A stretch of DNA of 61,934 nucleotides, taken from positions 1 to 61,934 of IMG/VR virus record IMGVR_UViG_3300031455_000003; one strand, written 5' to 3'. Shown here in pieces: positions 13,968-58,623 of this stretch. Position numbers and translations under genes: made by a program. The notes under the pieces were generated by a model. It was not told the DNA's origin. It saw nothing but the letters and a program-made list of their open reading frames with translations, and searched no databases. Origin of the DNA: a virus (Duplodnaviria > Caudoviricetes). Numbering within the stretch: position 1 is the stretch's first letter; every line of letters begins with the position of its first letter.

Positions 13968-14012
13968 TAACACATTGATATTGCTCGGCAATGGCACTAC
14001 CTCCGGGCCTAC
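13968..14012. other. Candidate attP region
   Basis: IHF-consensus TAACACATTGATA (13968-13980) and tRNA-3'-like CCTCCGGGCCTAC (14000-14012) abutting the integrase stop. Confidence 0.3.
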
Positions 14013-15315: not shown

Positions 15316-15350
15316 GCTCACCCCTGCCTCCCCAGCGCTTCGGCGACGCG
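15316..15350. repeat. 35-bp gene-boundary repeat A, copy 1 (copy 2 at 16273-16307)
   Basis: GCTCACCCCTGCCTCCCCAGCGCTTCGGCGACGCG identical at both sites. Confidence 0.95.
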
Positions 15351-15602: not shown

Positions 15603-15627
15603 TCCCGCTCTCCCTGGTCCTGCGCGC
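15561..15627. repeat. 67-bp gene-boundary repeat B, copy 1 (copy 2 at 16470-16536)
   Basis: One mismatch; encodes AQDQGERE-stop plus MTDPEAEKIAR(E/D)LT. Confidence 0.95.
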
Positions 15628-15999
15628 GGGCAGCCTCCGGTAGATCGCGGCGGCGCTGGTCCTTCCGGCATGTTCCTGCGTCGGCCTCTCGGGCGGTCGC
15701 GGCATACCAGCACCCGTCGAAGCCCTCCGTCGTTGCGAAACCGTCCTCGGCGTGATCAAACCACGCGCCGCACTGGTCGCACCAGAACAGGCTGCTGTCG
15801 GCCGTCGCCGCGTCGAGCAACCGCTCGTAGTCGGCGCGTGGGATCGTCACAAAGCTCTCTGCGTCACCCATCGCCGTCCTCGGCCTCGGCGTAGGTCTCG
15901 CGCTCGACCTCGAAGGTCTCGTCGCGGAGTTCGCCGGCTGCGGTCCTATACGTGACGGTGATTTTCCAGAGCATGGGCGGGAGGATAGGACGGCGAAGG

Positions 16000-16278
16000 T
16001 CATGCGTCGATCCCATCACGGAGCCCGGCAAGGATGCCTTCGAGGACCGCCATGCCTTTGGGCTTGCGGATGCGGTAGCGGATGAGCCTGCTGGTTCGCA
16101 GGGCGTCAGGAGCAACGCTATGCCAATTCACCCAGCGCCAGCACCCCTCGTCCGCCGCTTCCCCTTCCGCTTCGAAAAAGCGGCCAGGCACACCCTCCAG
16201 AACGGCCTTTACCCAAAGCCCCACGCACGGACAGCCTTTGCCGTCATGTTCGACCCAAGGCCCCCACTCCCCGCTCAC
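16000..16278 (-). CDS. Hypothetical phage protein (WGPWVEHDGKGCP)
   Basis: Coupled ORF, 92 aa. Confidence 0.65.
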   Translation of the reverse strand: MSGEWGPWVEHDGKGCPCVGLWVKAVLEGVPGRFFEAEGEAADEGCWRWVNWHSVAPDALRTSRLIRYRIRKPKGMAVLEGILAGLRDGIDA

Positions 16279-16511
16279 CCCTGCCTCCCCAGCGCTTCGG
16301 CGACGCGACGGCCGAGGTCGGAAAGCTCAAAGCATTCGCAGGAGTATTGCCGCCTGATCGCAAGGCCCTTGCGCACCAAAGCGTTGAACACGCGAGTTTG
16401 CCCTGCCAGTCCTTTTGTTGCCTGCGATGCTGTCGCCACCATGATCGACAGGTGAAACTGCTGCGGCTCCGTCAGATCCCGCGCGATCTTCTCGGCTTCG
16501 GGGTCCGTCAT
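16275..16511 (-). CDS. Hypothetical protein MTDPEAEKIARDLT...RVAEALGRQG
   Basis: Coupled ORF; winged-helix-like NALVRKGLA. Confidence 0.7.
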   Translation of the reverse strand: MTDPEAEKIARDLTEPQQFHLSIMVATASQATKGLAGQTRVFNALVRKGLAIRRQYSCECFELSDLGRRVAEALGRQG

Positions 16512-16709
16512 TCCCGCTCTCCCTGGTCCTGCGCGCTGGCGCGGAGAAGGCGCTGAACTGCGGGGAAGTGGTCGGCGCCGCACCTGCCGCACTCCCATCC
16601 GGTGTCGAGGCTGCCTCCGCACTTGACGCAAGCTCCTTCGTCAATGTCGAAGCCTGCAGGCAGGAGGAATACGATGTGATCGGCCCACGCCTGAGACGGC
16701 GGCCTGCGA

Positions 16710-17228
16710 TCAGCACTCATCGCCGTCCTCCTGCGCGCGGGCGAGATGGGCGGCGAGGGCGCTTACATTCTGCGCCATTCGCCCAAGCCGATCCATTTCG
16801 GCTATAGTTGACGCGCGCGATCGCTGCCGAGCATCTTCCTCCTCTGGCGTCAGGTCGGCGATTGCCTTCCACATGAAGGCGTGCGGGTGAACGCCATAGG
16901 CCTCCACATAGGCGAAATCGTAGGGCCATTTACCGGGGAAGTGGCCTGTGAAGATGCCCGTCGAGCCGAACTCGATCGCGGCGAAATCAGTGCCGTCCTT
17001 GGGGCAATAGCTGCCGTCCCGCCACCCAAGCTCGCGCAGCCGCTGCTTGCCGCCGCAGATGGCGTTGAGGGCCGCCGCGGTGTGCGGCAGGCGCGCCGCT
17101 AGGGCTGCCCGCGCCGCCTCCATGGCTTCCCACAGCGCCTTGGCCTCGTCGTGCGTCAGGGGAACATGGCTCCCGTCTACCATTGTCTTGTGGCCGGAGA
17201 AGCGCCGCGCGTCGTCAGCTTCGGTCAT
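16710..17228 (-). CDS. Hypothetical protein
   Basis: 172-aa coupled ORF. Confidence 0.65.
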   Translation of the reverse strand: MTEADDARRFSGHKTMVDGSHVPLTHDEAKALWEAMEAARAALAARLPHTAAALNAICGGKQRLRELGWRDGSYCPKDGTDFAAIEFGSTGIFTGHFPGKWPYDFAYVEAYGVHPHAFMWKAIADLTPEEEDARQRSRASTIAEMDRLGRMAQNVSALAAHLARAQEDGDEC

Positions 17229-37671: not shown

Positions 37672-38055
37672 ATGTCAGATCGCATCGCGCAACCGCGGTA
37701 TGGGTCGATCTTCAGGGACGACCCCGAGAAGGCTGAGACTGCGAAGGCGAAGTGGGCCGAGGCTGTCGCGCACCTCAAACTGAACGATTGGGTTTCCCCG
37801 GGGCGTCTTGCGGTCGCGGATCGCTATGCGCGAGCCTACGCGGAATACGAGGCGCTTTACCCGATCGCAGCGGCAGAGGGGCCGGTGAAGGTCGGGCCGA
37901 ACGGCGGCGATGTGTTCAATTTCACCTGGTCTGCGGTCGAGAAGCTCAACGAGAGGCTGGCCAAGTTGGAGGCCAAGTTGAAGATTGACCCGAACGACGA
38001 AGGCGAGCGCGTTCCGGCCGCGCCAAAGACAGCTGCCGACGCCTACCTCGATTGA
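37672..38055 (+). CDS. terS: Terminase small subunit (P27-like)
   Basis: Position; RYARAY...EGPV...LEAKLKIDP. Confidence 0.8.
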   Translation: MSDRIAQPRYGSIFRDDPEKAETAKAKWAEAVAHLKLNDWVSPGRLAVADRYARAYAEYEALYPIAAAEGPVKVGPNGGDVFNFTWSAVEKLNERLAKLEAKLKIDPNDEGERVPAAPKTAADAYLD

Positions 38056-40915: not shown

Positions 40916-42811
40916 ATGACCACCATTCGCAAGGCCGCGGCATCCGCCGTTGGCCCTGATCTCGAGTTTGTCCTCTCCGACGAGACCGTGGATCGCTACG
41001 GCGACAAGGTCATGGCGACGGGCTGGGTGCTCGCGAATTTCCGCAAGAACGCGATCGCGCTGTTCGGGCACGACAGCCATTTCCCGATCGGCACGTGGAA
41101 GAACGTGCGCGTCGAGGGCGGCAAGCTGCTCGGCAAGCTGGAGTTCGCGGCCGAGGGCACGTCCGCCCGGATCGATGAGCTCCGCAGGCTGGTCGAGCAG
41201 GGCGTCCTGCGTGCGGTCTCGGTGGGTTTTCGCCCGCTCGAAGACGAGCCGATGGACGAGAAGAACCCCTACGCCGGCCGACGCTACACCCGGCAGGAGC
41301 TGGTCGAGTGCAGTGTCGTAAGCGTGCCGGCCAACCCGGCGGCGCTGGCGAAGGCTGCCCAACTCGGAATTTCCGCTGACGTCATCACCTTAGCCTTCGG
41401 CGAGCGCGCCGATGGGGGCGGGGTGACGCGTCACGGCGCTAGCGGCGAGAGCGCCGCCCCCCGAAACGCCCCCAACATGAGGCACACAATGAAGACGCTT
41501 TCCCAGCGCATCGAGGATGCGCAGACCGATCTCGTCGCCAAGCGCGACAAGCTCGTGGAGCTGAATGCCGCGGACGCGCTCGATCTCGACGCGATCGAGG
41601 AACTGAACGCCCAGCTCGACATGCAGGAGCGCGCGCTCGCGGCCATGAAGTCGTCCGAGGCCAAGCTCGCCGGCACGACCACCAGGTCCGGTGAGCTGGC
41701 GGCTCCGCCGACCAACCGCCGGCCGCTGGGGTTCCAGCAGCGCGAGGTCGACGGCTTCGACTTGATCGTTCGGGCGGCCGTCGTCAACGGCGTCGCGATG
41801 TTCGGCGGCAAGTCGATCGACAAGGTGCTCGATGAGCGCTACCCGGGCCATGAGGCGACCGCGATCATCTCGAAGACGGATGCCACCATCGGCACGACCA
41901 GCGTCAGCGGCTGGGCTTCCGAACTGATGCAGACGAGCTACGCCTCGTTCGTGGACGCGCTCCGCGGCCGGTCGATCTACCCGGATCTTCGCCAGCGCGG
42001 CATGTCGCTGTCCTTCGACCAGTCCGGCACCGCCTATATCCCGAGCCTTACCGCTGGTGGGGCCAACGGCTCGTTCTTCGGGGAAGGCGCTCCGATGCGC
42101 GTCGGCCGCATCACCACTGCGGCGACCACGATGACCCCGCGCAAGCTGGGCGTGATCGTGCCGTTTTCGCGCGAGGCGGCGAAGCGCAGCACCCCGAGCC
42201 TCGAGGCGCTGGTCCGCGACGCGATCGTGCGGGACACTGCGGCGATCCTCGATGCGGCCCTTCTCGATGCGACGGCCGAAGACTCGGTGCGGCCCGCGGG
42301 CCTGCTGAACGGCGTGTCGGCAACCGCCAGCGGCTACGGCGGCGGCGACTACATGGCGGTGATCGAGGATATCTCGGCGCTCATGGCGCCGTTCGATGCC
42401 GCAAACGCCTCGGACGGGATCGTGCTCGTCATGCACCCGGCGCAGTCCCGGAAGCTAGCGATGATGGCGGGTCCGGACGGCACCTTCGGGTGGGCCGACA
42501 AGTTCCTGTCGGAGTTCACCGTCGTGCGGTCCACGCACGCCACGGCCGGCCGGTTGATCGCGCTCCGCGTCTCCGATTTCATCACGGCGGCGGGCGACGC
42601 CCCGCAGTTCGAGATGAGCACCCAGGCGACCGTGCACATGGAGGACACCACTCCCTTGGAGATCGTCGAATCCGACTCGCCCGACGTGGTCGCCGCGCCG
42701 GTCCGTTCGTTCTTCCAGACCGACACCATGGGCATTCGCATGGTGATGGACGTGTCGTGGAAGATGCGCCGCTCCGGCGTTATCCGGTGGATCAACAGCA
42801 CGAGCTGGTGA
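40916..42811 (+). CDS. Prohead protease - HK97-fold major capsid fusion
   Basis: DRYGD, LFGHD, AVSVGF, ECSVVSVPANPAA; coiled delta-like region; capsid motifs GEG, P.GLLNG, SFFQTD. Confidence 0.92.
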   Translation: MTTIRKAAASAVGPDLEFVLSDETVDRYGDKVMATGWVLANFRKNAIALFGHDSHFPIGTWKNVRVEGGKLLGKLEFAAEGTSARIDELRRLVEQGVLRAVSVGFRPLEDEPMDEKNPYAGRRYTRQELVECSVVSVPANPAALAKAAQLGISADVITLAFGERADGGGVTRHGASGESAAPRNAPNMRHTMKTLSQRIEDAQTDLVAKRDKLVELNAADALDLDAIEELNAQLDMQERALAAMKSSEAKLAGTTTRSGELAAPPTNRRPLGFQQREVDGFDLIVRAAVVNGVAMFGGKSIDKVLDERYPGHEATAIISKTDATIGTTSVSGWASELMQTSYASFVDALRGRSIYPDLRQRGMSLSFDQSGTAYIPSLTAGGANGSFFGEGAPMRVGRITTAATTMTPRKLGVIVPFSREAAKRSTPSLEALVRDAIVRDTAAILDAALLDATAEDSVRPAGLLNGVSATASGYGGGDYMAVIEDISALMAPFDAANASDGIVLVMHPAQSRKLAMMAGPDGTFGWADKFLSEFTVVRSTHATAGRLIALRVSDFITAAGDAPQFEMSTQATVHMEDTTPLEIVESDSPDVVAAPVRSFFQTDTMGIRMVMDVSWKMRRSGVIRWINSTSW

Positions 42812-43894: not shown

Positions 43895-45265
43895 TTGGGG
43901 AAGCGGGCCAAGCGGAAGGCCGTCAAAGGCGAGATCGTCAAGGCCGCCGAAGGCGAATATCGTTCCGGCCCCTATGTTCTGGACGACGGCTGGCTTCCGG
44001 CGGGCTCGGCGTGGAATTTCTGGCAGATGGGCCAGAACCCGCGCCCCTACGGCACGCACTCGGCCATGGTCGAGGCTTGCGTTTCGGCCTACGCGCAGAC
44101 GATCGCGATGTGCCCCGGCGACCACTGGCGCTTGCTCGGCAACGGCGGGCGCGAGCGGGTTACGACTTCCGCCCTGTCGCGGATCCTGCGCCGGCCGAAC
44201 GACTACCAGTCGATCAGCGATCTCAAGCTGAACCTAGCGCGCAATCTCTACGAGCACGGCAACGCCTACGCCTATGCGATCCGCAACGACCGCTACGAGA
44301 TCACCGAACTGCACCTGATGCGCCCGAGGCAGTGCGCCTGCTACGTGGGCGATGACGGCTCGATCTTCTACTCGCTCGGCGGGAACGAGATCGTAGATCG
44401 CCGGATCGGCACGACGATGGTCCCGGCTCGGGACGTGCTGCATGTGCGCCTCCACACGCCACGGCATCCCCTGAAGGGCGAGAGCCCCATTCTCGCGGCT
44501 GCGATCGACATTGCGGCGGGCAATGCGGCGATGGAGCAGCAGCTTGCGTTCTTCCGGAACCAGGCCAAGCCCGGCGTGATGTTGGCGACCGACGCCGCCA
44601 TGACCCGAGAGCAGATCAACGAGGCGCGCGAGCGGTTCCGGGACGTGACTACGGGTGAGAATGCAGGCGGGACGCCGGTGCTCGCTCACGGGCTTAAGCC
44701 GATCGTCGTCGCCACGAGCGCACAGGACGCGCAGCTGGCCGAAACGCTCAAGATGAGCGACCAGGCCGTGGCGCTGGCGTTCCGGGTGCCGCTCCAAGTG
44801 TTGGGAATCGGCGGCACGCCCTACGCGTCCACGGAAATGCTCATGCAGTCGTGGGTCAGCACGGGGCTCGGCTTTGCGCTGAACCACATCGAAGAGGCCT
44901 TCGACCGGCTGTTCAACCTGCGCGGCGTCCCAGAGGAATACGTGGAGTTCTCCACAAAATCCCTGCTGCGATCGGCGTTCAAGGATCGCCTGGAGGGGCT
45001 CGCGCGCGGCGTGTTGACGGGCATCTACAGCCCGGACGAGGCGCGGGCCGAGGAAGAGCTCCCCGAGGTCAAGGGCGGCTACGGCGAAGAGCCGCGAGTG
45101 CAGCAACAGGTCGTGCCGTTGAGCGCATGGGAGAAGGGGCAGATCGCCGCTCCTGCCCCCGCTGCTCCGCCGGCCCCGGCTGCGACAGACGAGGGCGAGG
45201 ATGCAGAACGGAATAGCCCAGACGCGATCTTCCGCCGCCTCGATGTCCTCCGCAGCCTACACTGA
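43895..45265 (+). CDS. Portal protein (HK97 family)
   Basis: VEACV..YAQTIA, RPNDYQS, GNAYAY, VLHVR, LKGESP, AFRVP. Confidence 0.93.
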   Translation: MGKRAKRKAVKGEIVKAAEGEYRSGPYVLDDGWLPAGSAWNFWQMGQNPRPYGTHSAMVEACVSAYAQTIAMCPGDHWRLLGNGGRERVTTSALSRILRRPNDYQSISDLKLNLARNLYEHGNAYAYAIRNDRYEITELHLMRPRQCACYVGDDGSIFYSLGGNEIVDRRIGTTMVPARDVLHVRLHTPRHPLKGESPILAAAIDIAAGNAAMEQQLAFFRNQAKPGVMLATDAAMTREQINEARERFRDVTTGENAGGTPVLAHGLKPIVVATSAQDAQLAETLKMSDQAVALAFRVPLQVLGIGGTPYASTEMLMQSWVSTGLGFALNHIEEAFDRLFNLRGVPEEYVEFSTKSLLRSAFKDRLEGLARGVLTGIYSPDEARAEEELPEVKGGYGEEPRVQQQVVPLSAWEKGQIAAPAPAAPPAPAATDEGEDAERNSPDAIFRRLDVLRSLH

Positions 45266-46781
45266 GGCGCTGGAGCGCGCGCTTGCCCGCGTCATCTCGG
45301 ATGCCGAGCGCCAGATGCAGGCTCTGGCGGCCCGCTGCGACGCCACGGTGGCCGCGATGCAGGCCAGAGTGACGGACGCGGAGACGCGGATCCTCGCGGC
45401 GGAGGCCGTTGTTGCTCGCCGTTTGGCGGCGACAGAAGCGGACATAGCGTTGCGCGTAACGGCGCGGCTGGCCGAGATCGAGCCCGTCGACGTCGCGGAG
45501 ACGGTGCGCGGCTTGCTGCCGCCTCCGCCCGAGCCGTTCGACCCATCGCCGCTGATCGATCGGATTGCGGCGGTCGAGGCGCGCGAGATGCCTGCGCCGT
45601 TCGATCCCGAGCCGCTCCGCAGCGAGTTCTATGGCAGCCTTGCCTCCGTCCGGAAAGAGGCAGCCGACGCGCTGGCGGCCATCCCAGAGCCGCAGGAGCC
45701 CGCGCCGCTGCCCGACATCCCCGGGCTGGTGGATGAGGCCGTGCGCGCCGCTGTGGTGGAGCTGACGGTCGAGATAGACGGCCGTAAGGACGCGGCATCC
45801 GCGGAAGTAGAGCGGATGGTTGGCGATGCCGTCGCGCGTGCTGCTGCTGCACTACCGCCGCCTGCACCGGGCAAGGACGCGGATCCCGAGGAAGTGCGGG
45901 CGATGGTGGCCGGCGCTGTGGAGGCGGCTGTGGCGGCTATCCCTGTGCCCAGCGACGGCAAGGACGCGGACATGGATCAGGTCCGCGCGTGGCTTGACGA
46001 GGCAGTTGCTGCGCTGCCTCCACCGAAGGACGGCGAGAGCGTCGACCCCGATACGGTCAAGACGATGGTGGACGAAGCGGTTGCCGCCATTCCTCCCGTC
46101 GATCTTGAGCCGCTGCGCGAGGAAATCGCTGCGGTGAAGTCGGCCATTCCGGTTCTGCCGGAGCCGGCTGACCTGAGCGGCTTCGCCCTGCGGTCGGAAC
46201 TGCCGGTGCTCCCGGAGCAGAAGGACTGGACGCCTGAGATCGAGGCGCTGCGCGAGGAAATCGCCGGCACGCGCACCGAACTCGGCGAACAGGTCGCCAA
46301 GATCGCCGAGCACCGCGGCGTGTTTCCGATCGCGAAGGAATGGGCTGACGCCGTCCACTACGAAGGCGCGGTTGTGCGGCACAACGGCTCGCTCTGGCAG
46401 GCTGTCCGGGACACGGGCAAAGCCCCGGGCGGGGACGATTGGGCATGCCTCGCGGCGGGTGGAGACAAGGGCGACCCAGGTGAGAGCATGATCGCCCGCG
46501 GCACGTTCGACCCGGCCGAAGAATACAGGCGGCTGGACGTGGTGGCCTACGACGGCGGTGGTTGGCTTGCCAGGACGGACAATCCTGGCGCGATCCCCGG
46601 CCCCGGCTGGCAGTCGATCGCCACGCGCGGCGGTCGCGGCAGGCAGGGCGAGAGCATCAAGGGCGATCCCGGCCCGGGCATCGTGGCTGGCGAAGTGTCC
46701 GACCAGGGGCTGGTGACGCTGACCAACGGGGACGGGAGCGAGGTCGAGATCGACCTGTATCCCGTGCTGGTGCGGCGATGA
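45243..46781 (+). CDS. Coiled-coil/Pro-rich repeat protein with carbohydrate-binding-like and collagen-like C-terminus
   Basis: GKDAD/KDGES repeats; YEGAVVRHNGSLWQA; GDKGDPGE. Confidence 0.7.
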   Translation: MSSAAYTEALERALARVISDAERQMQALAARCDATVAAMQARVTDAETRILAAEAVVARRLAATEADIALRVTARLAEIEPVDVAETVRGLLPPPPEPFDPSPLIDRIAAVEAREMPAPFDPEPLRSEFYGSLASVRKEAADALAAIPEPQEPAPLPDIPGLVDEAVRAAVVELTVEIDGRKDAASAEVERMVGDAVARAAAALPPPAPGKDADPEEVRAMVAGAVEAAVAAIPVPSDGKDADMDQVRAWLDEAVAALPPPKDGESVDPDTVKTMVDEAVAAIPPVDLEPLREEIAAVKSAIPVLPEPADLSGFALRSELPVLPEQKDWTPEIEALREEIAGTRTELGEQVAKIAEHRGVFPIAKEWADAVHYEGAVVRHNGSLWQAVRDTGKAPGGDDWACLAAGGDKGDPGESMIARGTFDPAEEYRRLDVVAYDGGGWLARTDNPGAIPGPGWQSIATRGGRGRQGESIKGDPGPGIVAGEVSDQGLVTLTNGDGSEVEIDLYPVLVRR

Positions 46782-47323
46782 GCCTGCGGCGGATCGAAGT
46801 GGCGACCTTGCCGATCTCTGTCGCGGAGGCGCGGGCTAACGGCCGGATCGATGCGGACACGGACGACTCCCTGGTGGAGATCCACATCCGGGCGGCGACG
46901 GCCCATGCCGAGCGGCTGTGCGGCTGCGCGTTCAGCCCGCAAGTGTGGGAACTTGTTCTAGATTCCTTTCCGTCCAAGGAGATCAGCCTCATCATGGGGC
47001 CGGTCTCCGAGGTCGTCTCGATCAAGGCCATCGACCTTGCGGGGGCAGAGCAGACCGTCGATGCCGCTGACTACGTGGTCGATACTGCGTCCCGCGTCGG
47101 CTGGGTCGTCCCGGTCGCATCATGGCCGGCGACGATGGAGACGATCAACGCAGTCGTCGTTCGGTTCATCACAGGAACGATCGAGCCCGATGCAAAGCAA
47201 GCGATCCTGTTGCTGACCGAGCACTACTACGAGAACCGGGCAGACGGCTCGGAGGCGAGCGTCACATCGATCCCGTTCGGGGTGCGCGAGCTCCTGTCGC
47301 TGCATCGCCGCTGGTTCATCTAG
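46778..47323 (+). CDS. Head-tail adaptor (gp6-like)
   Basis: PISVAEAR...DD.LV...I.AA...AE; KQAILLL.EHYYENR. Confidence 0.88.
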   Translation: MSLRRIEVATLPISVAEARANGRIDADTDDSLVEIHIRAATAHAERLCGCAFSPQVWELVLDSFPSKEISLIMGPVSEVVSIKAIDLAGAEQTVDAADYVVDTASRVGWVVPVASWPATMETINAVVVRFITGTIEPDAKQAILLLTEHYYENRADGSEASVTSIPFGVRELLSLHRRWFI

Positions 47324-47414: not shown

Positions 47415-47831
47415 TTGGCAACGTACGTGAAATACGAGCCCTTCGCACAGAAAATGTGGAACGGCGACCTCGATCTGTTCGGAACCGAGGACACGGTCAA
47501 GATTCTGATCGCGTCCGACGCGCCGGTTGTGGCAACCGATGACGAGGTCGCCGACGTAACGCAGGTCACCGGCACCGGCTACACGTCCGGGGGCGAGGAC
47601 ACGCAGAACAACTCCACGCGATCGGGCGGAACGGTCACCGGGACCGCGGTGGATGTCGTCTGGACCGGCGGCGCTGGCGGCTTCACTGCGGGGCGGTATC
47701 TGATCCAGTTCGATGACACTATTTCCGGAGATCCACTGCAAAACTATTGGGACTACGGGGCCAACTTTACTGTGGCTGTTGGTGAGACCTTTACAGTTGA
47801 CTACGGCGCGTCGGTCTATACTTTTACATGA
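47415..47831 (+). CDS. Beta-rich virion protein (putative fibre subunit)
   Basis: TAGGAG RBS + TTG; DLDL...DTVKI.., GTGYTSGG, DVVWT, WDYG..TV..GETFTV. Confidence 0.7.
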   Translation: MATYVKYEPFAQKMWNGDLDLFGTEDTVKILIASDAPVVATDDEVADVTQVTGTGYTSGGEDTQNNSTRSGGTVTGTAVDVVWTGGAGGFTAGRYLIQFDDTISGDPLQNYWDYGANFTVAVGETFTVDYGASVYTFT

Positions 47832-48421
47832 TGGCGGAAGTTCTTGATGCTCGTCCCGCCTGGGTCGAAGAAACCCTCGCCCGCATCGGCTTCGTCCGCG
47901 AGGGCGTGACCTACTACAACGCCAAGACGCCGCAGGACTTCGAGGCGGTCCACTGGGACGAAACCCAGCGCCTCAATCAGCGCGTCGCCTGCAAGCGGAC
48001 CAAGGTCGCCAAGCTCGGCGCGGACGGGCTGCTCCGTTACAAGCCGTGGCTCGCCGATAACTGGATGGCTCAGAAATGGGTCGCCCAGCTCGAGCAGAAC
48101 CAGCTGCTCGCCTCGTGCTGCCGGCACCCGGAGAACCACGAGATCGGGGCGTTCTATTCCTCGGACGAGGATCAGGCCAAGGGCGTCCCGGACATCTACA
48201 TCTTCTTTTGCACCTGTGGTCGAATGCATCGCAAGTTCTGCGTCGGCGGCACCAAGGGCTTCAAGACCAACCACCTCGGCGAAGTCGAGCACGAGATGGT
48301 GCCGCTGGTCGACCCGGAAACCGGGCAGCCTGCTCTGAGCGAAGAGGGGGCGCCGGTCATGGTTTCGCGCCCCGTTCAGCTGCACGCTCCCCGCCCCATG
48401 TGGATGATCGACGGCAAGTGA
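47828..48421 (+). CDS. Cys/His-rich hypothetical protein
   Basis: SCCRHPENH ... FCTCGRMHRKFC. Confidence 0.65.
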   Translation: MMAEVLDARPAWVEETLARIGFVREGVTYYNAKTPQDFEAVHWDETQRLNQRVACKRTKVAKLGADGLLRYKPWLADNWMAQKWVAQLEQNQLLASCCRHPENHEIGAFYSSDEDQAKGVPDIYIFFCTCGRMHRKFCVGGTKGFKTNHLGEVEHEMVPLVDPETGQPALSEEGAPVMVSRPVQLHAPRPMWMIDGK

Positions 48422-48422
48422 C

Positions 48423-49556
48423 ATGCCTCGCGCGCTAGGGATCAGGATCGGCGTCCCGGGGGCGGCCGAGGAAGCGCCGTCCTATACCTCCGGGCTCGCC
48501 TACGATCTGGAGTGGACGCAGAACACAGCGATCACGTCGATCAACCTGGCGACGTGCTTCAGCGGATCCACGGCGTCCTACAGCGTGGTTGAGGGCGCGC
48601 TGCCGAGTGGCGTCACGCTGTCGTCGGGGATCATCAGCGGCACGCCGACCGGCTTCCGGGGCCGGAACTGGATCACCATCCACGCGGAGAACGGCGCGGG
48701 CGAGGACGATCGCCGCTTCCTGCTCTCGGTGAAGCCGGATGAGGTGAGCGGTGCCTTCGGGACGCCCTACGCTACGATCTACGACCCGACGACGCTCGGC
48801 GTATCGACCATCAGCGCCCAGACCGTCGCGGATCTCAACGACGTCCTGATCCGCGACATGACGATTACGGGGCAGCTCCAGCTCCGCGGCGTTAACAACG
48901 CCTGCATCACCCGATGCGCGATCTCGCACTCGGCCGATGCGGACGGCCTGCGCCTTTCGCAAACCGGCTCCGGCTGCGACCAGATCGTCGCCTACGGCAA
49001 CAGCATAAACTCCAGCGGCCGGGACTCGATCGGCATCTCCGGGGATTGGCCGTTTCACGGTCCAGACCTGCACATTCTGAATAACTACATCTACAACTCT
49101 GGCAACAACGCCTCGCCCAAAGAGCACGGCATGTATATCATGACCATGTGCTATATCCACGGGAACATCGTCTATAACTCCGGCTACGGTAACGCGATCT
49201 CCACGCGCTCTTCGGCGGATATCCGGTGCAACTTCGTCTATACGGCAAACGACGCTGGCGTGAGCTACTACTGCGACCATCCGGAGTCAGACCCGAACAG
49301 CTGGATTTGCCGCGGCAACGTGGTGGTGAATGCCGGTCAGGACGGGATTTCCTACGACTTCCTGCTCCGCGACGTGCCGGACGCGAACAACCGGGTTTCG
49401 ACATTCGAGATCGTCGGTAACTGGGGCACGGCCGACGAGGGCCTCTACGAAGCGCAGACCGGCTACTCCGGCGCGAGCATCACGGCATCAGGCAATACAA
49501 CGCTGGCGAGCGATGCTGCTGGCCTGGCCATGTTCCCAGCGACGCCCTGGGTCTAA
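48423..49556 (+). CDS. Ig-like (He_PIG) domain + right-handed beta-helix protein
   Basis: YSVVEGALPSGVTLSSGIISGTPT; Asn-ladder repeats. Confidence 0.75.
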   Translation: MPRALGIRIGVPGAAEEAPSYTSGLAYDLEWTQNTAITSINLATCFSGSTASYSVVEGALPSGVTLSSGIISGTPTGFRGRNWITIHAENGAGEDDRRFLLSVKPDEVSGAFGTPYATIYDPTTLGVSTISAQTVADLNDVLIRDMTITGQLQLRGVNNACITRCAISHSADADGLRLSQTGSGCDQIVAYGNSINSSGRDSIGISGDWPFHGPDLHILNNYIYNSGNNASPKEHGMYIMTMCYIHGNIVYNSGYGNAISTRSSADIRCNFVYTANDAGVSYYCDHPESDPNSWICRGNVVVNAGQDGISYDFLLRDVPDANNRVSTFEIVGNWGTADEGLYEAQTGYSGASITASGNTTLASDAAGLAMFPATPWV

Positions 49557-49576
49557 CCCCCACCTAGGAGACTATT

Positions 49577-49852
49577 TTGGCCCAGACCTTCAGCTTCCCC
49601 GTCGTCGGGGAGAACGAAACCGCGTTCATTTCGGGGACGTTGACCGTCACGCTCAAGGAGGCGGGGCCGACCTACATCCCGGTTCCCGGCCTGCCGGCGA
49701 CCACGATCACCAAGGGCGGCGCTCCGGTCGTGATCCCGGCCGCGCCGCACTTTAGCGGCGTCACGTCATGGTCGCTCGGTGCAGGCTCGCCGCCTTGGGC
49801 CAGCATCAACCCCGCAACCGGGAACGTCACCCTCACGCCACCGGCGGCCTGA
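49577..49852 (+). CDS. Circularly permuted Ig-like (He_PIG) protein
   Basis: TAGGAG RBS + TTG; ends in PPWASINPATGNVTLTP, begins with terminal-strand-like TFSFPVVGEN...GTLTVTL. Confidence 0.7.
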   Translation: MAQTFSFPVVGENETAFISGTLTVTLKEAGPTYIPVPGLPATTITKGGAPVVIPAAPHFSGVTSWSLGAGSPPWASINPATGNVTLTPPAA

Positions 49853-50712
49853 TGCCGCTGGTTACCGTCGTCGGCACGAACGAGAGTGGCTCGGTCTCCG
49901 CGTCGTTCAATGTGACGGTGAACGAGCCGTCCGGCCCCAACCCGGCCGACTACGGCCAGGTAATCGCCAACCAGAGCTTCCCGAGCGGCCTCTCGCTCGA
50001 TGGCGTGACCAATCGGGCCTACGTCAACTGCACCTTCGGCAGCATGGTGCAGTTGCGAAACTGCCACCACCTGCTGTTTCTCGGCGGAACCCGGATCGGC
50101 GGGGCAGAGCGGGGCTTCAAGATCCGCGAGACCGGCTCGCCGTGCAGCGATGTCATCTTCAGCGGCATCACGATCCGGGATATTCAGGGCGACGGCTTCC
50201 TGATCTCCAACCAGAGCGGGCCGCACACCGGCGTTCAGATCATGGATTGCCGGCTCGACAACATCGGGATCGCCCCGGCCGCCGTTGGATCGGGTCTGGT
50301 GCACGGCATCTACTCGTGGACGGAGGTCTACTTCGCCCGGAACAGGGTCACCCGCTGCGTCGGCGGCAACGGCGTTTCGCTCCGGGGCGGCGGCGTGGTC
50401 GAGGGGAACTGGATCGCGGACTGCCAGAAGGGCGGGATCACCTATTTCGGCGACCACCCGGCCGGGCCGTCGAACCGCTACGTGATCCGCGGCAACGCGG
50501 TGACTGTGCCGAACCCCGGCGGTGGATATGCCGACATCACTCTGCTGACCCCGCCGACCGCGTCCTACCGGGTCGGCAACTTCGAGATCCGCGACAACGT
50601 CATCACGCGGCCGGTGATGATCGGCTCGGGCTACGGCGGCGCGGTGATCACGCAGAGCAACAACCAGATCCGCACCGACGCGCAGGTGAGGGCGCTGTTC
50701 CCAGCGGGGTAG
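49852..50712 (+). CDS. Beta-helix protein with N-terminal partial Ig strands
   Basis: TGATG-coupled; VTVVGTNESGSVSASFNVTV then beta-helix paralogous to 48423-49556. Confidence 0.75.
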   Translation: MPLVTVVGTNESGSVSASFNVTVNEPSGPNPADYGQVIANQSFPSGLSLDGVTNRAYVNCTFGSMVQLRNCHHLLFLGGTRIGGAERGFKIRETGSPCSDVIFSGITIRDIQGDGFLISNQSGPHTGVQIMDCRLDNIGIAPAAVGSGLVHGIYSWTEVYFARNRVTRCVGGNGVSLRGGGVVEGNWIADCQKGGITYFGDHPAGPSNRYVIRGNAVTVPNPGGGYADITLLTPPTASYRVGNFEIRDNVITRPVMIGSGYGGAVITQSNNQIRTDAQVRALFPAG

Positions 50713-50715
50713 CCC

Positions 50716-52926
50716 ATGGCTTTCGTCAGCGGCAGCTATCCCTACCTGAACCTTTCCGGGAATAGCGTAGCCAACGTTCCGATCGGCACGGCCTCGGCTG
50801 GTCGACTGGTTGTCGTTTCGATCATCTACACCGGCACGTTGGGGGCCGCGGGAACGATCGGCGGCGTCACCGCGGCCCGGATCAACACCGGGTCTCGCGT
50901 GCTAATGTGGGCGAACGTCCCGACTGGCACGACGGCGACGGTCGACTTGCCCAGCGTGACGCAGATCGGCGTTGCGGGCGTCTGGGAGTTTACCGGGCTG
51001 CTGGCGACAGCCTTCGATACCGCGAGCGGCACCACTACCACGTCGACCACGATCGACGTTGCTCAGGGTGGCGCGGTCGTCGCGCACTCATGGACATCGA
51101 GCGGAGGCGGAACCACCACCTGGGCCGGCGCGGCCGAGGACACAGACAGCCTGCTGGGGACGATCAACGTCCGCATGTCGGGCGCGAGCTCCACCGGCAT
51201 GTCGGCCGAGACCGGTCGCACGATCTCGTCGTCTCACAACACCGTCTCCCTGCTGGCGGTGTCTTTCGAGCCCGTAACCGCCTACACGGTTGCGGCGGAT
51301 GCCGGGTCCTATGCGGTGGCGGGTCAGACCGCCTCGCTCGAGTTCGGTTACGAGGTTGAAGCCGCCACCGGTGCCTATGCGGTAACCGGGCAGAGCGCGA
51401 CGCTAGCGCGGGCGCTGCCGATGGTGGCGGCGGCCGGTTCCTACGTTGCCACCGGACAAGCGGCCGATCTGGAGCACGGCTGGGAGGTTGACGCCGCTGC
51501 CGGGTCGTACGGCCTCTCGGGGGCGGCGGTCGACCTGGAGCACGGTTGGGCCATTGCTGCGGCAACGGGGGCCTACGCAGTCACCGGCGCTGATGCGACG
51601 CTGACCTACACGCCGATCACCGGCTACACGATCAGCGCCGATGCGTCGTCCTACGCCGTTACCGGCGTCGCCGCGGCGCTGGAGTTCGGCTTCGCCGTCG
51701 ATGCGGACGCAGGTAGCTACGCCCTGTCCGGGTCGGACGCGAGCCTGGAGCACGGCCGCGAGGTCGTGGCCGACGCCTCGGCCTATGAGCACCTCGGCGG
51801 GGCTTCGACTTCGTTCGAGCTGATCGGGTATCAGGTCGGCGCGGACACCGGTTCCTACGCTGTCACCGGCACGGCCGCGTCGCTGGAATTTGGCTACGCC
51901 GTTGACGCGGACGCCGCCGCCTACGCGGTCAGCGGTCAGTCCGCCGACTTGGAGTTTGGTCGGGAAGTCGCCGCAGACGCCGGGTCCTACGCTGTCGCGG
52001 GTTCGAGCGTGGGCCTGTCGCGCGGGCTGCCGATCTCCGCAGGGGCGGGCTCCTACGGTGTCGCCGGGCAGACTGCGGACCTTGAACTTGGCCGTGAGGT
52101 TGCGGCCGAGGCAGGCTCCTATGCCGCGACAGGCTCGGCGGTCGATCTTGAGTTCGGCTTCGCGATCGACGCGGATGCTGGTAGCTATGCGACCACTGGT
52201 CAGGCCGCCGATCTGGAGCATGGCTGGGCGGTCGACGCAGACGCCGGCTCCTACGGCATCACTGGCAGCGATGCCGCTTTGGAGCGAACGTATCTGCTCG
52301 ACGCCGCAGAGGGCTCCTACGGCGTCTCTGGCGTCGATACTGCGCTCACCTACGAGCCCATCGGCGCTTACGTCATCGGCGCTGACGCGGGCTCCTACGC
52401 GCTCGCGGGGGCCGATGCGGCGCTTGAGTTCGGTTACGCGGTCGATGCCGATGGCACGGCCTACGGGATCGCCGGGCAGGATGCCTCGCTTGAGTTCGGT
52501 TTCGCGGTAGACGCGGACGCTGGCGGCTACGGTGTTTCGGGCGCGGCGGCCTCGCTCTACCACGTCCGCGTGATCGATGCTTCGGTCGGGGCGTACCTGA
52601 CCACCGGCTCCGATGTCGGTCTCGCGCAGGCCAGAGCGCTCGCGGCGATCGAGGCGGAATACCTCGTTGCCGGTTCCGATGCCGGTCTTGAAGTCGGCTA
52701 CATGGTCGACGCGGAGGCCGGTTCCTACGGCATATCCGGCGCTGACGTTGAACTGTTCTACGGGCTCACGATCGGCGCAGCGCCCGGCTCCTACGGCGTC
52801 ACCGGCGCTGATGTTGATCTCACCTACCGTGCTCTAAGGCGGCCGACCGGTCGAGGCGTCCTGCGCCCCGCCAGCATCTCAACTCAATCGCGCCCCGCGG
52901 CGCTGTCTACACACAGGAGGCCCTAG
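50716..52926 (+). CDS. Repeat protein: N-terminal beta domain + 23 x ~22-aa repeats
   Basis: Consensus (Y/F/R)xVxADAGSYAVTGxxAxLEFG from 51283 to 52830; basic C-terminal tail. Confidence 0.85.
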   Translation: MAFVSGSYPYLNLSGNSVANVPIGTASAGRLVVVSIIYTGTLGAAGTIGGVTAARINTGSRVLMWANVPTGTTATVDLPSVTQIGVAGVWEFTGLLATAFDTASGTTTTSTTIDVAQGGAVVAHSWTSSGGGTTTWAGAAEDTDSLLGTINVRMSGASSTGMSAETGRTISSSHNTVSLLAVSFEPVTAYTVAADAGSYAVAGQTASLEFGYEVEAATGAYAVTGQSATLARALPMVAAAGSYVATGQAADLEHGWEVDAAAGSYGLSGAAVDLEHGWAIAAATGAYAVTGADATLTYTPITGYTISADASSYAVTGVAAALEFGFAVDADAGSYALSGSDASLEHGREVVADASAYEHLGGASTSFELIGYQVGADTGSYAVTGTAASLEFGYAVDADAAAYAVSGQSADLEFGREVAADAGSYAVAGSSVGLSRGLPISAGAGSYGVAGQTADLELGREVAAEAGSYAATGSAVDLEFGFAIDADAGSYATTGQAADLEHGWAVDADAGSYGITGSDAALERTYLLDAAEGSYGVSGVDTALTYEPIGAYVIGADAGSYALAGADAALEFGYAVDADGTAYGIAGQDASLEFGFAVDADAGGYGVSGAAASLYHVRVIDASVGAYLTTGSDVGLAQARALAAIEAEYLVAGSDAGLEVGYMVDAEAGSYGISGADVELFYGLTIGAAPGSYGVTGADVDLTYRALRRPTGRGVLRPASISTQSRPAALSTHRRP

Positions 52927-53189
52927 GCCGCCCGCATCTCGATCGTCTTCCCCGCCGCGGCGAGGATGTTGATCAGCTTGTCGACGGAGAACAGGTCAAC
53001 CTTCCCGCGCAGAAGGTCGGAGATACGGGGCTGGGTCAGCCCGAGACGGCGCGCCGCTTCCGCCTGGGACCAGGCGCTCTCGCGGATAACGCGCTCGATC
53101 TCGCGCATCAGCTGAGCCCGAACCTTCATGTTCTCTGCCTCGGCGGGGGTATCCTCGATCGCGTCCCAGACGCTCTCGAACTCTTTCAT
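52923..53189 (-). CDS. higA: HigA-like XRE antitoxin
   Basis: SVWDAIED...WSQAEAARRLGLTQPRISDLLRGKVDLFSVDKL; GGAGG RBS. Confidence 0.88.
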   Translation of the reverse strand: MKEFESVWDAIEDTPAEAENMKVRAQLMREIERVIRESAWSQAEAARRLGLTQPRISDLLRGKVDLFSVDKLINILAAAGKTIEMRAA

Positions 53190-53191
53190 GT

Positions 53192-53515
53192 TCAGCCTCC
53201 TTTCAGGTCGCGGAACCGTTTGGCCGCCAAAGCCTTGTCGGCCTTGCTCGTCTTCCCTGTCTTCTTCTGGAAGCAATGCAGCACATAGACGGCGTCGGCG
53301 ATCGTCGCAGTGTAGATGACCCGAAACGCCCCCGCCTCATCCCGGACGCGGATTTCGCGGACGCCCCGCCCGATCGACTGCATCGGCTTCCAGTCCGATG
53401 GGTCCTCGCCGTTCTGCACCTTGTCGATCTGATAGCCGGCTTCGCGCCTCGCGGCCTGCGGGAAGGCCCGAAGGTCTTCGAGAGCGCTACCGCAGAACCT
53501 GACCATCTTGCTCAT
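53192..53515 (-). CDS. higB: RelE/HigB (Gp49-like) toxin
   Basis: LEDLRAFP...GYQIDKVQ.G.DP.DWKPM..IG.GVREIR...FRVIY...VYVLHCFQKKT; toxin-first order. Confidence 0.9.
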   Translation of the reverse strand: MSKMVRFCGSALEDLRAFPQAARREAGYQIDKVQNGEDPSDWKPMQSIGRGVREIRVRDEAGAFRVIYTATIADAVYVLHCFQKKTGKTSKADKALAAKRFRDLKGG

Positions 53516-53521
53516 AGGATG

Positions 53522-53550
53522 GTTATACAGAATTACGCATAAGATGGCAA
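53522..53550 (-). promoter_or_regulatory. Sigma70 promoter of TA operon
   Basis: TTGCCA-17 nt-TATAAC, ATG 6 nt downstream; imperfect IR TTATAC...GCATAA. Confidence 0.75.
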
Positions 53551-53562
53551 GAGGAAACTGTA

Positions 53563-53976
53563 ATGAGCGACATCTCAATCACCGCAGCGAACGTCATTGC
53601 GGGCGCGAACTCCATCCGTGAGGCCGGCATCGCTGGCGCGACGATCACGGCGGGTCAGGTGGTCTACAAGGACGATACGACGCGCAAGTTCCTGTTGGCG
53701 GACGCTGACGGTGCGGTTGCGTTGCGGACGCCCTACGGCATCGCCCTTAACGGCGCGGCGCTCAACCAGCCGCTCGGGGTGCTCCGGGCCGGCGAGATCA
53801 CCATTGGCGCGACCGTGACGGCTGGCGTCGCCTACTACCTGAGCGACGACCCCGGCGGCATCTGCCCGCTCGCGGATGTGAGCGGCGGGGACTACATCGT
53901 GCAGATCGGCCTCGCCAAGAGCGCCACCGTCATCGTCGTGGACTTCCAGATCACTGGCGTCGCGACGGGGGCCTGA
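53563..53976 (+). CDS. Virion structural protein (decoration/DUF2190-like)
   Basis: AGATITAGQVVY...LADAD...GIALNGA...G..YYLS. Confidence 0.65.
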   Translation: MSDISITAANVIAGANSIREAGIAGATITAGQVVYKDDTTRKFLLADADGAVALRTPYGIALNGAALNQPLGVLRAGEITIGATVTAGVAYYLSDDPGGICPLADVSGGDYIVQIGLAKSATVIVVDFQITGVATGA

Positions 53977-54060: not shown

Positions 54061-54417
54061 ATGGCGACGATCGAAGCGGGAAAGCTGAAGCACCGGATCG
54101 CGCTGGAGCGCCGGCAGGAGATCAACCCCGACGCCCCGAATGACTACGGCAACACCGTGGCCGATTGGGTTTCCGAGGGTGAGGTCGCGGCGCAGTTCAT
54201 TGCGCTTCGCGGCGGCGAAGCCGTCATCGCGGGGCGGCTTCAGGGTCGCCAGCCGGTGGTCATCCGGGTTCGGGCCTCTGCGCTCACGCGGTCGGTCTCG
54301 TCGGACTGGCGCGTAACGGACGTGCGGAGCGGCGTTTCCTACGCGGTGCGGACCGTGACGGAGACCGAGGATCGGGCGGCGGTCGAGATACTGGCAGAGA
54401 GCGGAGTGGCGGCGTGA
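54061..54417 (+). CDS. Head closure (stopper) protein
   Basis: AGKLKHRIAL...DYGN...W...GGEAV. Confidence 0.88.
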   Translation: MATIEAGKLKHRIALERRQEINPDAPNDYGNTVADWVSEGEVAAQFIALRGGEAVIAGRLQGRQPVVIRVRASALTRSVSSDWRVTDVRSGVSYAVRTVTETEDRAAVEILAESGVAA

Positions 54418-56527: not shown

Positions 56528-56592
56528 CCGGTCCTCCTGTTGCGAATGCAGGAGCAAATCGCGTCGGGATGCCGGGCATTCAAGGGGAACAA

Positions 56593-58623
56593 ATGGCGAC
56601 AGACCTCGAAAAGCTCGTCGTCAGCCTTAGCGCGGACTTCAAGAGCTACGAAAACGCAATGGCCAAGGCCTCCGGGATCACCCGGAAGCAGCTTGCGCAG
56701 ATCAAGGCGGATGCCGTCGCGGCTGGCGGCGGATCGGTCGTGGCGTTCGACGGCGCCGCCCGGAGCGCGAAGAAGTTCGGGAGCGGAGCGTCCGCAGCGG
56801 CCCGTCAGGTGGCGCAACTCAAGGGTCAGACGGGAAACCTGGCGGCGCAGTTCAACGATATCGGCGTGCAACTTGCCGGCGGTCAGTCGCCGTTCCTGAT
56901 CGCCCTTCAGCAGGGGACGCAGATCAACCAGGTGCTCGGCGGCGCGGGCGCGCGCGGCGCGGTGGCGGCGCTTGGCGGGGCGTTCATGTCTCTGCTCAAT
57001 CCCGTTTCGCTCGCGACGATTGGCATTATCGCCGCAGGCGGGGCGGCCGTGCAGTATTTCTCATCGCTCTTCCGCGATGGCGACAAGTCAGCCGAGGAAC
57101 TGAAAAAGCAATCCGACCTGATCCGCCAAGTGGCCAAGGATTGGGGCGACGCGGTTCCGGGTATCCGCGCCTACGCAGACCAGCTTGAGAGGGCGGCCCG
57201 TAGCGCCGACATTCTCCAGGCGGCGCAGTCGGTTCAAGATCAGATCGCCGGCAAGCTGCTTGAGAGATTCCGGGCGCTGACCGCAGAACACAAGAACGCC
57301 ATCAGCCTTATCCCGGACGTGAATCGGGAATACGGCGTTCTCGCCGGCAAGATGGAGAGCGGCGGAGCGACCACTGAGGATTTCCAGCGCATTTTGGACA
57401 TCCTTGCGTCGGTTCTCGATACCGAGACTAGCCCTGCGCTGGAGACCCTGCGCGCCGCGCTGGCCGCAATGCAGGCGCAAGCCGCGGGGGCGGCATCCTC
57501 GATCGCGCAAGTTGGTAATGAAGCGGCAGTGGCGGCCGGCAAGGTTCGCGACTTCGCGGCTGCGCAGGCGATGCGCGACAGCACGCGCTCGGTTCTGCAG
57601 GACCAGAAGGATTTCGTCGCCGAGCAGGATCGGCTGAACAGCCTTACGGCCGATCAATTGGCGATGGAGCGCGAGATTGCATCCGTCCGCTCGGACGCTG
57701 AGCGCGACGGAACGGTCATAGATGCCACCACCGCCACACGCCTGGCGCAGGATAGACTTGCGGCGGAGAAGGCCCGCGCTGAAGCCGCAAAGGCGGCGCG
57801 TAGTTCTGGCGGCGGCGGTGGTGGCGGACGCTCCGCGTCTGTCTCCGAGGCCGAGCGCGAGCGCGAAGCGGTCATCAAGCTGATCGAGGCGCTGCAGTTC
57901 GAACAGTCGCTGATCGGCGCTACCGACCTAGAGCGCGAGAAGGCGAACCAACTACGCCGGGCCGGAACTGCCGCAACGGCTGAGCAGCGCGCCCAGATCG
58001 AGGGCATCGTCACTGCGTCCTACGCAATGACGGAAGAGCTTGCCCGCACTGAAGAGCAGATGGAGGCGCTGAAGGATCTCAGCCGCGACGTGCTCGGCGG
58101 GATGGTGGAAGACCTGATCGACGGGGCGGACGCAGCGGATGTTCTGTCGAATGCGCTGGCCCGTGTCGGCGGATCGCTGATCCAGTCCGGTCTGGATGCT
58201 CTGATCGAGGGGGCGTTCGCCGGTCGAACTGGATCGGCTGGCGGCATTTTCGGTGGTCGGATCATCCCCGGCATCCTGCACAGCGGCGGCATCGCCGGCG
58301 TCGATGGCTATGGACATGGCCGCAGCGTTTCGCCGGCAGTGTTCGCCAACGCGCGCAGGATGCACACCGGCGGCATCGCCGGCCTGATGCCGGGCGAGGT
58401 TCCGGCGATCTTGCAAAAGGGCGAGCGGGTCATCCCGCGTGGCGGATCGGGGGGCGGCAACATGGATGTGCGCGTCTACGTCGATCAGGATGGCAACTGG
58501 CAGGCGGCGGTGGAGCGCATTGCCGGCGCGCGCGTGCGAGGCGAAGCCCCCCGGATCGTCGGCCAGTCGGTGAAGGCGGTGCGGGACGGCAATGCCGCGT
58601 CGGCGCGGTTCTTGAGTGGCTAA
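56593..58623 (+). CDS. Tape measure protein
   Basis: NLAAQFNDIGVQLAGGQSPFLIALQQGTQI; C-terminal HSGG / GEVPAILQKGERV. Confidence 0.92.
   Translation: MATDLEKLVVSLSADFKSYENAMAKASGITRKQLAQIKADAVAAGGGSVVAFDGAARSAKKFGSGASAAARQVAQLKGQTGNLAAQFNDIGVQLAGGQSPFLIALQQGTQINQVLGGAGARGAVAALGGAFMSLLNPVSLATIGIIAAGGAAVQYFSSLFRDGDKSAEELKKQSDLIRQVAKDWGDAVPGIRAYADQLERAARSADILQAAQSVQDQIAGKLLERFRALTAEHKNAISLIPDVNREYGVLAGKMESGGATTEDFQRILDILASVLDTETSPALETLRAALAAMQAQAAGAASSIAQVGNEAAVAAGKVRDFAAAQAMRDSTRSVLQDQKDFVAEQDRLNSLTADQLAMEREIASVRSDAERDGTVIDATTATRLAQDRLAAEKARAEAAKAARSSGGGGGGGRSASVSEAEREREAVIKLIEALQFEQSLIGATDLEREKANQLRRAGTAATAEQRAQIEGIVTASYAMTEELARTEEQMEALKDLSRDVLGGMVEDLIDGADAADVLSNALARVGGSLIQSGLDALIEGAFAGRTGSAGGIFGGRIIPGILHSGGIAGVDGYGHGRSVSPAVFANARRMHTGGIAGLMPGEVPAILQKGERVIPRGGSGGGNMDVRVYVDQDGNWQAAVERIAGARVRGEAPRIVGQSVKAVRDGNAASARFLSG

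Follow-up and report, generated by a model that had tools for sequence, protein, structure and literature searches.

An apparently split Ig/beta-helix gene beside its intact paralogue in a temperate, siphovirus-like soil phage

The genes considered here belong to a phage from a soil metagenome, known from the IMG/VR virus record IMGVR_UViG_3300031455_000003, all 61,934 bases of which were analysed (the window; a linear sequence with an estimated completeness of 72% and a G+C content of 66%). Between positions 49577 and 50712 two open reading frames (ORFs) of 91 and 286 codons follow one another with overlapping stop and start codons, and directly upstream lies an ORF of 377 codons whose product carries an immunoglobulin (Ig)-like domain followed by a right-handed beta-helix. 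The best explanation of the sequence is that the two smaller ORFs are the two halves of one gene, a tandem paralogue of the 377-codon gene. On balance we favour a reading in which this paralogue was split when the reading register slipped by one base in a loop of the Ig domain, with both halves probably still made by way of the stop/start overlap and probably joined in a 1:1 complex. A first-pass annotation of this DNA had instead proposed a polymer of 91-residue subunits, assembled by exchange of Ig strands and capped by the beta-helix protein; the locus is probably a tidy and fairly ordinary split gene rather than a pilus-like fibre of this kind.

The case for one gene in two pieces begins with the family to which the proteins belong. 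The products of 91 and 286 residues add up to 377 residues, exactly the length of the paralogue, and the 286-residue protein is 31% identical to that paralogue over 203 residues (expect (E) value 2e-19). In Pfam the 377-residue protein matches He_PIG (PF05345) at residues 27-103, with 30.8 bits against a cut-off of 24, and the 286-residue protein matches Beta_helix (PF13229) with 32.9 bits against a cut-off of 25.9. Neither the 91-residue piece nor the first 30 residues of either piece matches He_PIG at E ≤10, and the only Pfam match of the 91-residue protein is to RibLong, at 19.5 bits and thus below the cut-off of 27. A language-model feature search with the 91-residue protein, which serves as a lead only, returned He_PIG clusters (at 0.94) as 17 of its 30 matches.

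A HMMER search of 1.84 billion representative proteins with the 286-residue query gave 163 matches at E ≤1e-3, 51 of them at E ≤1e-10, and only the query itself exceeded 50% identity. Among the 150 matches listed, five have the Ig motif ISGTPT(G/D) directly before the beta-helix (P0002, P0012, P0042, P0127 and P0136, of which P0042 is the window's own 377-residue paralogue), and every one of these five is a single ORF. Scans of genomes and metagenomes found a P0002-like protein that is also one ORF at the level of DNA, in metagenome contig L032, together with unrelated multi-Ig proteins. Beta-helix relatives without any Ig domain are numerous; in P0005 and P0008, for instance, the match begins at residues 2-3. 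The 286-residue protein starts with a hairpin, and no other listed match starts with that hairpin. A homologue search with this protein as query returned itself only, and among viral contigs no related locus was found with the 286-residue protein, the paralogue or the family alignment. For the 91-residue protein, no stand-alone homologue was found in 5.8 billion proteins: at near lengths the search returned the protein itself and nothing else, and at longer lengths it returned nothing.

When the two pieces are put in order, with an X at the break, they align colinearly and end to end with the five fused relatives (MAFFT), and it is in this joined form that the He_PIG-like domain is colinear over its whole length with bona fide members of the family. 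The break falls within the GTPTG loop of the family, such that the 91-residue protein ends after ...TLTP and the 286-residue protein begins with the next strand. A family hidden Markov model (HMM) built from the five fused proteins matches the 286-residue piece from position 86, which is inside the Ig domain, to position 370 (E 1.8e-48). The same model aligns the ordered pair as one domain, positions 29-370, at 154.7 bits compared with 152.5 bits for the C piece alone, and none of 300 shuffled N pieces reached 154.7 bits (mean 151.6, standard deviation 0.5, maximum 154.3). The one-domain alignment and the colinearity with the five fused relatives support one element of the first-pass annotation, namely that an Ig domain is divided over two coupled genes.

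The site of the split is precise. The stretches that the first-pass annotation had quoted from the 377-codon ORF, from the two ends of the 91-codon ORF and from the first hairpin of the 286-codon ORF all lie where it had placed them. The two reading frames meet at positions 49838-49842 (+), where a CCA proline codon of the first frame (49838-49840) and an ACC threonine codon of the second (49840-49842) overlap at base 49840. Reading base 49840 in both frames restores the TPTG loop, as in four of the five fused relatives. The G+C content of third codon positions (GC3) is 0.83-0.93 in the 91-codon frame up to about 49850 and 0.83-0.97 in the 286-codon frame after it; therefore both ORFs look coding, with a sharp switch of frame between them. 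Because CCA is rare for proline in this phage (33 of 551 proline codons in 26 genes of the window), there is a small hint that the last base of this codon may once have been part of a threonine codon. Two other readings of the junction were rejected. Read-through of the TGA would meet further stops in the same frame at 49913 and 49919, and a start of the beta-helix protein at the upstream ATG 49768 would make the stretch an off-frame, arginine- and histidine-rich sequence, whereas the other frame fits the Ig consensus.

The signals around the split suggest how both pieces could be translated. The 91-codon ORF has its own AGGAG ribosome-binding site, read directly at 49566-49570 (+), six bases 5' of the TTG at 49577. 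At its other end the TGA of 49850-49852 overlaps the ATG of 49852-49854 in a TGATG motif, and the two ORFs are presumably translationally coupled at 49850-49854. Both signals had been recognized in the first-pass annotation. No AGGAG-like or other Shine-Dalgarno-like site lies directly upstream of the ATG at 49852. The overlap is enclosed by a predicted RNA hairpin that starts at the frame junction (49840-49848 paired with 49854-49862), with a folding energy of -17.7 kcal/mol and a z score of -2.95; only two of 200 shuffled sequences fold as well. The hairpin is compatible with coupling, because a ribosome that terminates at the UGA has already opened the stem, and it is not in itself a demonstration of frameshifting.

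A simple model for the origin of the pair would start from duplication of an Ig plus beta-helix gene, of the carbohydrate-enzyme or depolymerase kind, to give a tandem copy beside the present 377-codon gene. One base of register would then have been lost in the loop that separates the first strands of the Ig domain from the last two, so that the split would be a mutation of a fused ancestor. The shifted frame would have come to a stop at a TGA, which overlaps an ATG in register with the former frame, and because of this overlap both pieces are probably still translated, the second by termination and reinitiation, with no residue of the fold lost. The N-terminal hairpin of the beta-helix protein would insert into the strand-deficient Ig half contributed by the 91-residue protein, and the two would bind to form a non-covalent, 1:1, two-chain version of the neighbour's protein.

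Structure prediction bears on the final step of this model. AlphaFold2 predicts the 286-residue monomer with a mean predicted local distance difference test (pLDDT) score of 94.5, as an exposed N-terminal hairpin (strands at residues 3-10 and 13-20, pLDDT 81-89), then a linker, and then a complete beta-helix with regular short strands; the Pfam score and the model together identify it as a right-handed beta-helix protein. The monomer model of the 91-residue protein is poor (mean pLDDT 61.4, predicted template modelling score 0.51, residues 1-17 below 50) and is too weak to judge whether the protein could close on itself. The complex of the two was predicted with ESMFold2 in three runs, along with three controls. 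The three runs gave interaction prediction scores from aligned errors (ipSAE) of 0.76, 0.76 and 0.77, against 0.01 for the best control, with contact agreement of at least 91% and a partner pLDDT of at least 82. The same ipSAE mark is reached by 58 of 80 solved complexes and by 2 of 110 mismatched pairs, counts that are a rough guide here, where our own alignments were used. The confident interface joins residues 2-27 of the beta-helix protein to residues 27-91 of the 91-residue protein, with residues 4-10 of the former beside 62-67 of the latter and residues 21-22 beside 42-44. In the model the hairpin of the beta-helix protein forms the last two strands of the Ig sandwich and so completes the half-domain, in agreement with the earlier proposal that this hairpin is the source of the missing strands. 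Two parts of one divided gene can be expected to score well in such a test, given their likeness to single-chain Ig domains. The model indicates that the fold can be rebuilt from two chains; it does not demonstrate binding in the cell.

The 91-residue protein begins with a further element, a hairpin-like stretch that led the first-pass annotation to describe the parts of the Ig domain as permuted. Residues 9-28 of this protein and residues 6-25 of the beta-helix protein are identical at 9 of 20 positions and share the same hydrophobic alternation, with V/V, V/V, I/V, L/F, V/V and L/V at the matched positions. Their Smith-Waterman score of 46 compares with 18.1 +/- 3.9 for shuffled sequences, none of which (0 of 5000) scored as high. 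With the composition correction of HMMER, the two hairpins are reciprocal best non-self matches among 887 six-frame pieces of the window, at E values of 0.027 and 0.48, and their DNA is identical at 48 of 90 positions. No third copy was found in the window (next best E 0.78) or among 151 family proteins, where a hairpin query gave E <0.1 for itself and the 91-residue protein only. Furthermore, residues 1-26 of the 91-residue protein lie outside the confident interface of the complex model. The likeness that underlies the idea of permutation is thus detectable against shuffled sequences, and by E value it is statistically marginal. A diverged duplicate of the plug hairpin at the N-terminus of the 91-residue protein is plausible from these comparisons, and the stretch most likely represents a remnant or serves for docking.

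Several points weigh against a split paralogue whose halves are made and bind one another. Taken alone, the 91-residue piece matches the family HMM weakly (positions 30-60, E 0.034 with Z = 2) and residues 32-75 of the paralogue weakly as well (BLASTP E 1.5). No relative above about 33% identity, by which the split might be dated or selection on the pieces gauged, was found in any collection searched. The cleanness of the break, which lies in a loop, at a stop/start overlap and with no further lesions, would together with the N-terminal hairpin also fit a selected two-piece design. Finally, the independent assembly of this region consists of contigs, so that reads with a systematic error, or a fused variant present as a minority, could have escaped notice in what is probably the same sample. 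This assembly is a Logan contig of run X1 (20,795 bases, depth about 23), identical to the record over 48400-51400 with no other letters and no gaps; the run is probably the source sample, the assembler was a different one, and short chance matches of side pieces of the run were ignored. An identical second assembly rules out a slip by a single assembler. An error of sequencing or assembly, with a real gene of one ORF of 377-378 codons, would have the appeal that one extra base at 49838-49842 yields a perfect fused gene with the TPTG motif, at a site within a GC-rich hairpin and in two assemblies that probably share one sample. We nevertheless consider it very unlikely, in view of the agreement of two assemblers at this depth with no indel listed and the position of the site outside any homopolymer run (none of five or more bases occurs in 49577-49900). 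Even less weight falls on programmed -1 ribosomal frameshifting or transcriptional slippage, which would produce a fused 377-residue protein alongside the 91-residue product. A shift of -1 is indeed what would be required, and the site coincides with the start of a stable hairpin, but the 91-codon ORF (49577-49850) contains neither an in-frame X_XXY_YYZ heptamer nor a run of at least five identical bases, the hairpin encloses the stop and start rather than standing 5-9 bases downstream of a slip site, and the wider 121-nucleotide fold around the junction is unexceptional (z -1.16). A more serious competitor, unlikely as we judge it to be, is a decaying pseudogene: a redundant copy that recently suffered a disabling change of frame, whose 286-residue product is made inefficiently or fails to fold together with the 91-residue protein, and which has no function. 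The intact fused paralogue directly upstream would make such a loss tolerable, the ATG at 49852 is not preceded by a Shine-Dalgarno-like site, no second case of the split occurs among the 150 family representatives listed, and immediately 5' of the ATG the T-G of the TPTG loop can still be read in the -1 frame, a sign that the lesion may be young. Decay is harder to reconcile with a single lesion that leaves both pieces at full length, with high GC3 throughout and no further in-frame stops, and with a stop/start overlap that favours reinitiation; the 286-residue protein models as a complete beta-helix, and Ig-less members of the family such as P0005 and P0008 imply that the C piece could work alone.

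The remaining alternatives accept the pair as functional and ascribe more to it. In one, which we regard as improbable, the locus is a selected two-piece design in which the 91-residue protein is a socket and the beta-helix protein a tagged enzyme, the socket possibly chaining through its own hairpin or closing on itself as a circularly permuted Ig domain; the polymer accounts for about half of the small weight that we give to this design. A break placed in a loop, TGATG coupling and the absence of lost residues would all be expected of it, the two hairpins match one another as described above, and residues 27-40 of the 91-residue protein would provide a 14-residue proline-rich linker. However, the E values for the hairpin pair are only those given above, with no third copy in the window; the 91-residue hairpin falls outside the confident interface and its first 17 residues are modelled with little confidence; all Ig-bearing relatives are fused; the 91-residue protein has no stand-alone homologue among the proteins searched; and the cassette of genes to which the pair belongs is absent from all 28 portal-related phage loci compared with the window. 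The most ambitious form, a working donor-hairpin system beside its unsplit parent, with a 91-residue Ig socket that carries a spare plug, chains or closes on itself and is capped by the beta-helix enzyme, is in our estimation quite unlikely. The pilus-like fibre of the first-pass annotation, with the enzyme as its cap, is left without support: that annotation had itself looked to fused homologues as the sign of a different explanation, and five homologues with one fused ORF, including the adjoining gene, were found with the same length and order, the TPTG loop being restored by reading base 49840 in both frames. The role of a fibre is also not supported by the position of the genes, which lie between those for the head-tail connector and head completion and thus outside the tail-fibre region. 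Were such a system real, it would amount both to a pilus-like phage fibre and to a living intermediate in the "permutation by duplication" model. Literature listings and the opening lines of abstracts on donor-strand, strand or fold complementation and phage dealt with pili, biofilms, toxin-antitoxin systems and unrelated subjects, and none concerned a phage fibre assembled through exchange of Ig donor strands.

Returning to the split paralogue, its beta-helix part is most simply taken for a protein that acts on carbohydrates. A Foldseek search with the 286-residue model gave generic and weak matches (best E 1e-3, template modelling scores by query length of 0.36-0.52, identities of 9-15%). 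The best matches comprised lyases (the Klebsiella K1 capsule lyase, 7w1c, and PL6 alginate lyases), glycoside hydrolases and several phage tailspikes, besides depolymerase S2-4 (9k4a) and LKA1 gp49 (4ru4). Neither beta-helix protein had a match in a sequence search of the PDB, and no PHROG matched the 377-, 91- or 286-residue protein. Residues H151, Y154, R178, D201, N215 and N249 are conserved across 47 family members. Because of the fold class and these conserved residues, our best guess is that the beta-helix protein may have a carbohydrate-cutting or carbohydrate-binding role.

Several known systems provide instructive comparisons. The beta-helix depolymerases, tailspikes and lyases of phages supply the best structural matches to the 286-residue model and, like it, are right-handed parallel beta-helices found in phage. 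However, the 286-residue protein is much shorter, its matches are weak, and its gene is not among tail-fibre genes, lying between the connector and head-completion genes rather than in a tail-fibre or baseplate module. In chaperone-usher pili (Fim, Pap, Caf1), subunits are joined by donor-strand complementation and exchange. The phage pair resembles these in having an Ig-like fold without its C-terminal strands, whose completion by the N-terminal segment of another polypeptide is predicted. It differs in that two strands are donated rather than one, in that the donor is the putative enzyme and not the next identical subunit, and in its apparent origin from a visible frameshift of a fused gene. 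A Pfam scan of 24 window proteins detected no chaperone or usher family, and no signal peptide is evident in the phage pair. He_PIG domains fused to enzymes or surface proteins are the closest relatives at the level of the domain, given that the paralogue passes the Pfam cut-off and the split pair is colinear with the domain in five relatives, but in the split copy the domain is shared by two polypeptides and neither piece alone reaches the Pfam model. A precedent for the split itself is the chitinase of Pyrococcus furiosus, which is described as divided into PF1233 and PF1234 by a one-nucleotide insertion (PMC3575233). There too, one ancestral ORF became two adjacent ORFs in different frames, with fused homologues in relatives. 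In contrast to the chitinase, the phage gene has a fused homologue next door as well, and it is cut inside a small beta-sandwich domain and not between domains. The overlap of stop and start in the phage also allows translation of both halves, and from these two chains the domain could be formed again.

The features discussed here and the structural genes around them are collected in Table 1. The phage is temperate and siphovirus-like, because the window encodes an integrase together with tape-measure, tail tube, tail completion and head-completion proteins and a gp6-like connector. The Ig/beta-helix cassette forms a same-strand run between the connector and head-completion genes. Its genes (those for the 197-residue protein, the 377-residue paralogue, the 91- and 286-residue proteins and the 736-residue protein) were in none of the 28 portal-related phage loci, whose portal proteins are 53-70% identical to that of the window, when 13 window proteins were compared with these loci by tblastn; HMM and phmmer searches of six-frame pieces of the same 28 loci did not find the cassette either. 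In the closest portal relative, the IMG/VR locus L003, the space between the phrog_644 homologue and the tail-completion gene corresponds to this slot and is occupied by a GH26 enzyme. The absence of the cassette from the portal relatives and the GH26 enzyme of L003 make the slot look like an exchangeable place for glycan-active proteins. The L003 slot (13385-17140) codes for a 259-residue Ala/Gly/Ser repeat protein, a 341-residue protein and a 647-residue protein, the last of which combines the GH26 glycoside hydrolase domain with an Ig-like stretch in its interior.

Table 1. Positions of the genes, protein segments and RNA element discussed in the text (window coordinates)
Feature	Position	Strand	Remarks
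Integrase gene	14013-14954		
Head-tail connector gene	46772-47323		gp6-like
138-residue protein	47415-47831	+	phrog_644
197-residue protein	47828-48421	+	
377-residue protein, intact paralogue	48423-49556	+	He_PIG Ig domain, then right-handed beta-helix
91-codon ORF, N piece of apparently split gene	49577-49852	+	TTG start, TGA stop
91-residue protein, residues 1-28	49577-49660	+	Hairpin-like, resembles first hairpin of beta-helix protein
91-residue protein, residues 40-88	49694-49840	+	First strands of He_PIG-like domain, up to the ...TLTP loop
RNA hairpin (predicted)	49840-49862	+	GC-rich stem of 9 base pairs, UGAUG in or at the loop
286-codon ORF, C piece of apparently split gene	49852-50712	+	
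286-residue protein, residues 1-25	49852-49926	+	Last two strands of the split Ig domain; aligns with family ...ITIRA...LSV
736-residue protein	50716-52926	+	
Head-completion gene	54061-54417		
Tail completion gene	from 54863		
Tail tube gene	from 55307		
Tape-measure protein	56569-58623		

Other genes of the window deserve brief mention. The 736-residue protein encoded directly 3' of the split gene contains at least 21 copies of a 22-residue repeat, with matches that span residues 197 to 691 at a spacing of mostly 22, and it has no Pfam or PHROG family above threshold. Tandem Repeats Finder detects no tandem repeat in its DNA, and the repeats are therefore old and diverged. Within the head-tail block, at 52923-53578 on the minus strand, a Gp49/HigB-like gene (PF05973, E 4e-28) is paired with an HTH_37 antitoxin-like gene (E 5e-26), and the two look like a toxin-antitoxin moron. 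Further upstream, an ORF of 969 codons (37985-40894, +) matches the large terminase in its C-terminal half (phrog_9, residues 493-960, E 1e-101) and terminase, primase and DnaC-like P-loop PHROGs in its N-terminal part; it is an unusually long terminase, possibly a fusion. The ORF of 631 codons at 40916-42811 (+) matches a head maturation protease (phrog_80, residues 23-252) and major head proteins (phrog_617 and phrog_10), and looks like a protease-capsid fusion gene. The portal gene is followed by the gene for a 526-residue protein rich in Ala, Pro and Glu (45201-46781, +). The first part of this protein matches PHROGs annotated as portal, a stretch near its C-terminus matches tail-fibre PHROGs (phrog_5073), and most of the 28 portal-related loci conserve its C-terminal part. 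At the left end of the record are two very large ORFs, one of 1356 codons (319-4389, +) with NosD/Beta_helix at residues 954-1163 and one of 1191 codons (6539-10114, +). Probably the assembly is circularly permuted and these ORFs, as a continuation of its right end, encode the distal tail or host-recognition proteins.

Taken alone, the split of the Ig/beta-helix paralogue would be an ordinary event, in which a duplicated phage gene was broken by one base. What the locus offers is a natural before-and-after pair, with the intact Ig plus beta-helix gene standing beside its split copy, in which the cut leaves a strand-deficient Ig half followed by a putative enzyme that begins with the missing hairpin. 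The locus may thus be a picture of how one base change in a loop, together with an overlap of stop and start, could create a docking pair of Ig domain and enzyme, and it would offer a simple means to test if an Ig domain found in nature can re-form from two chains.

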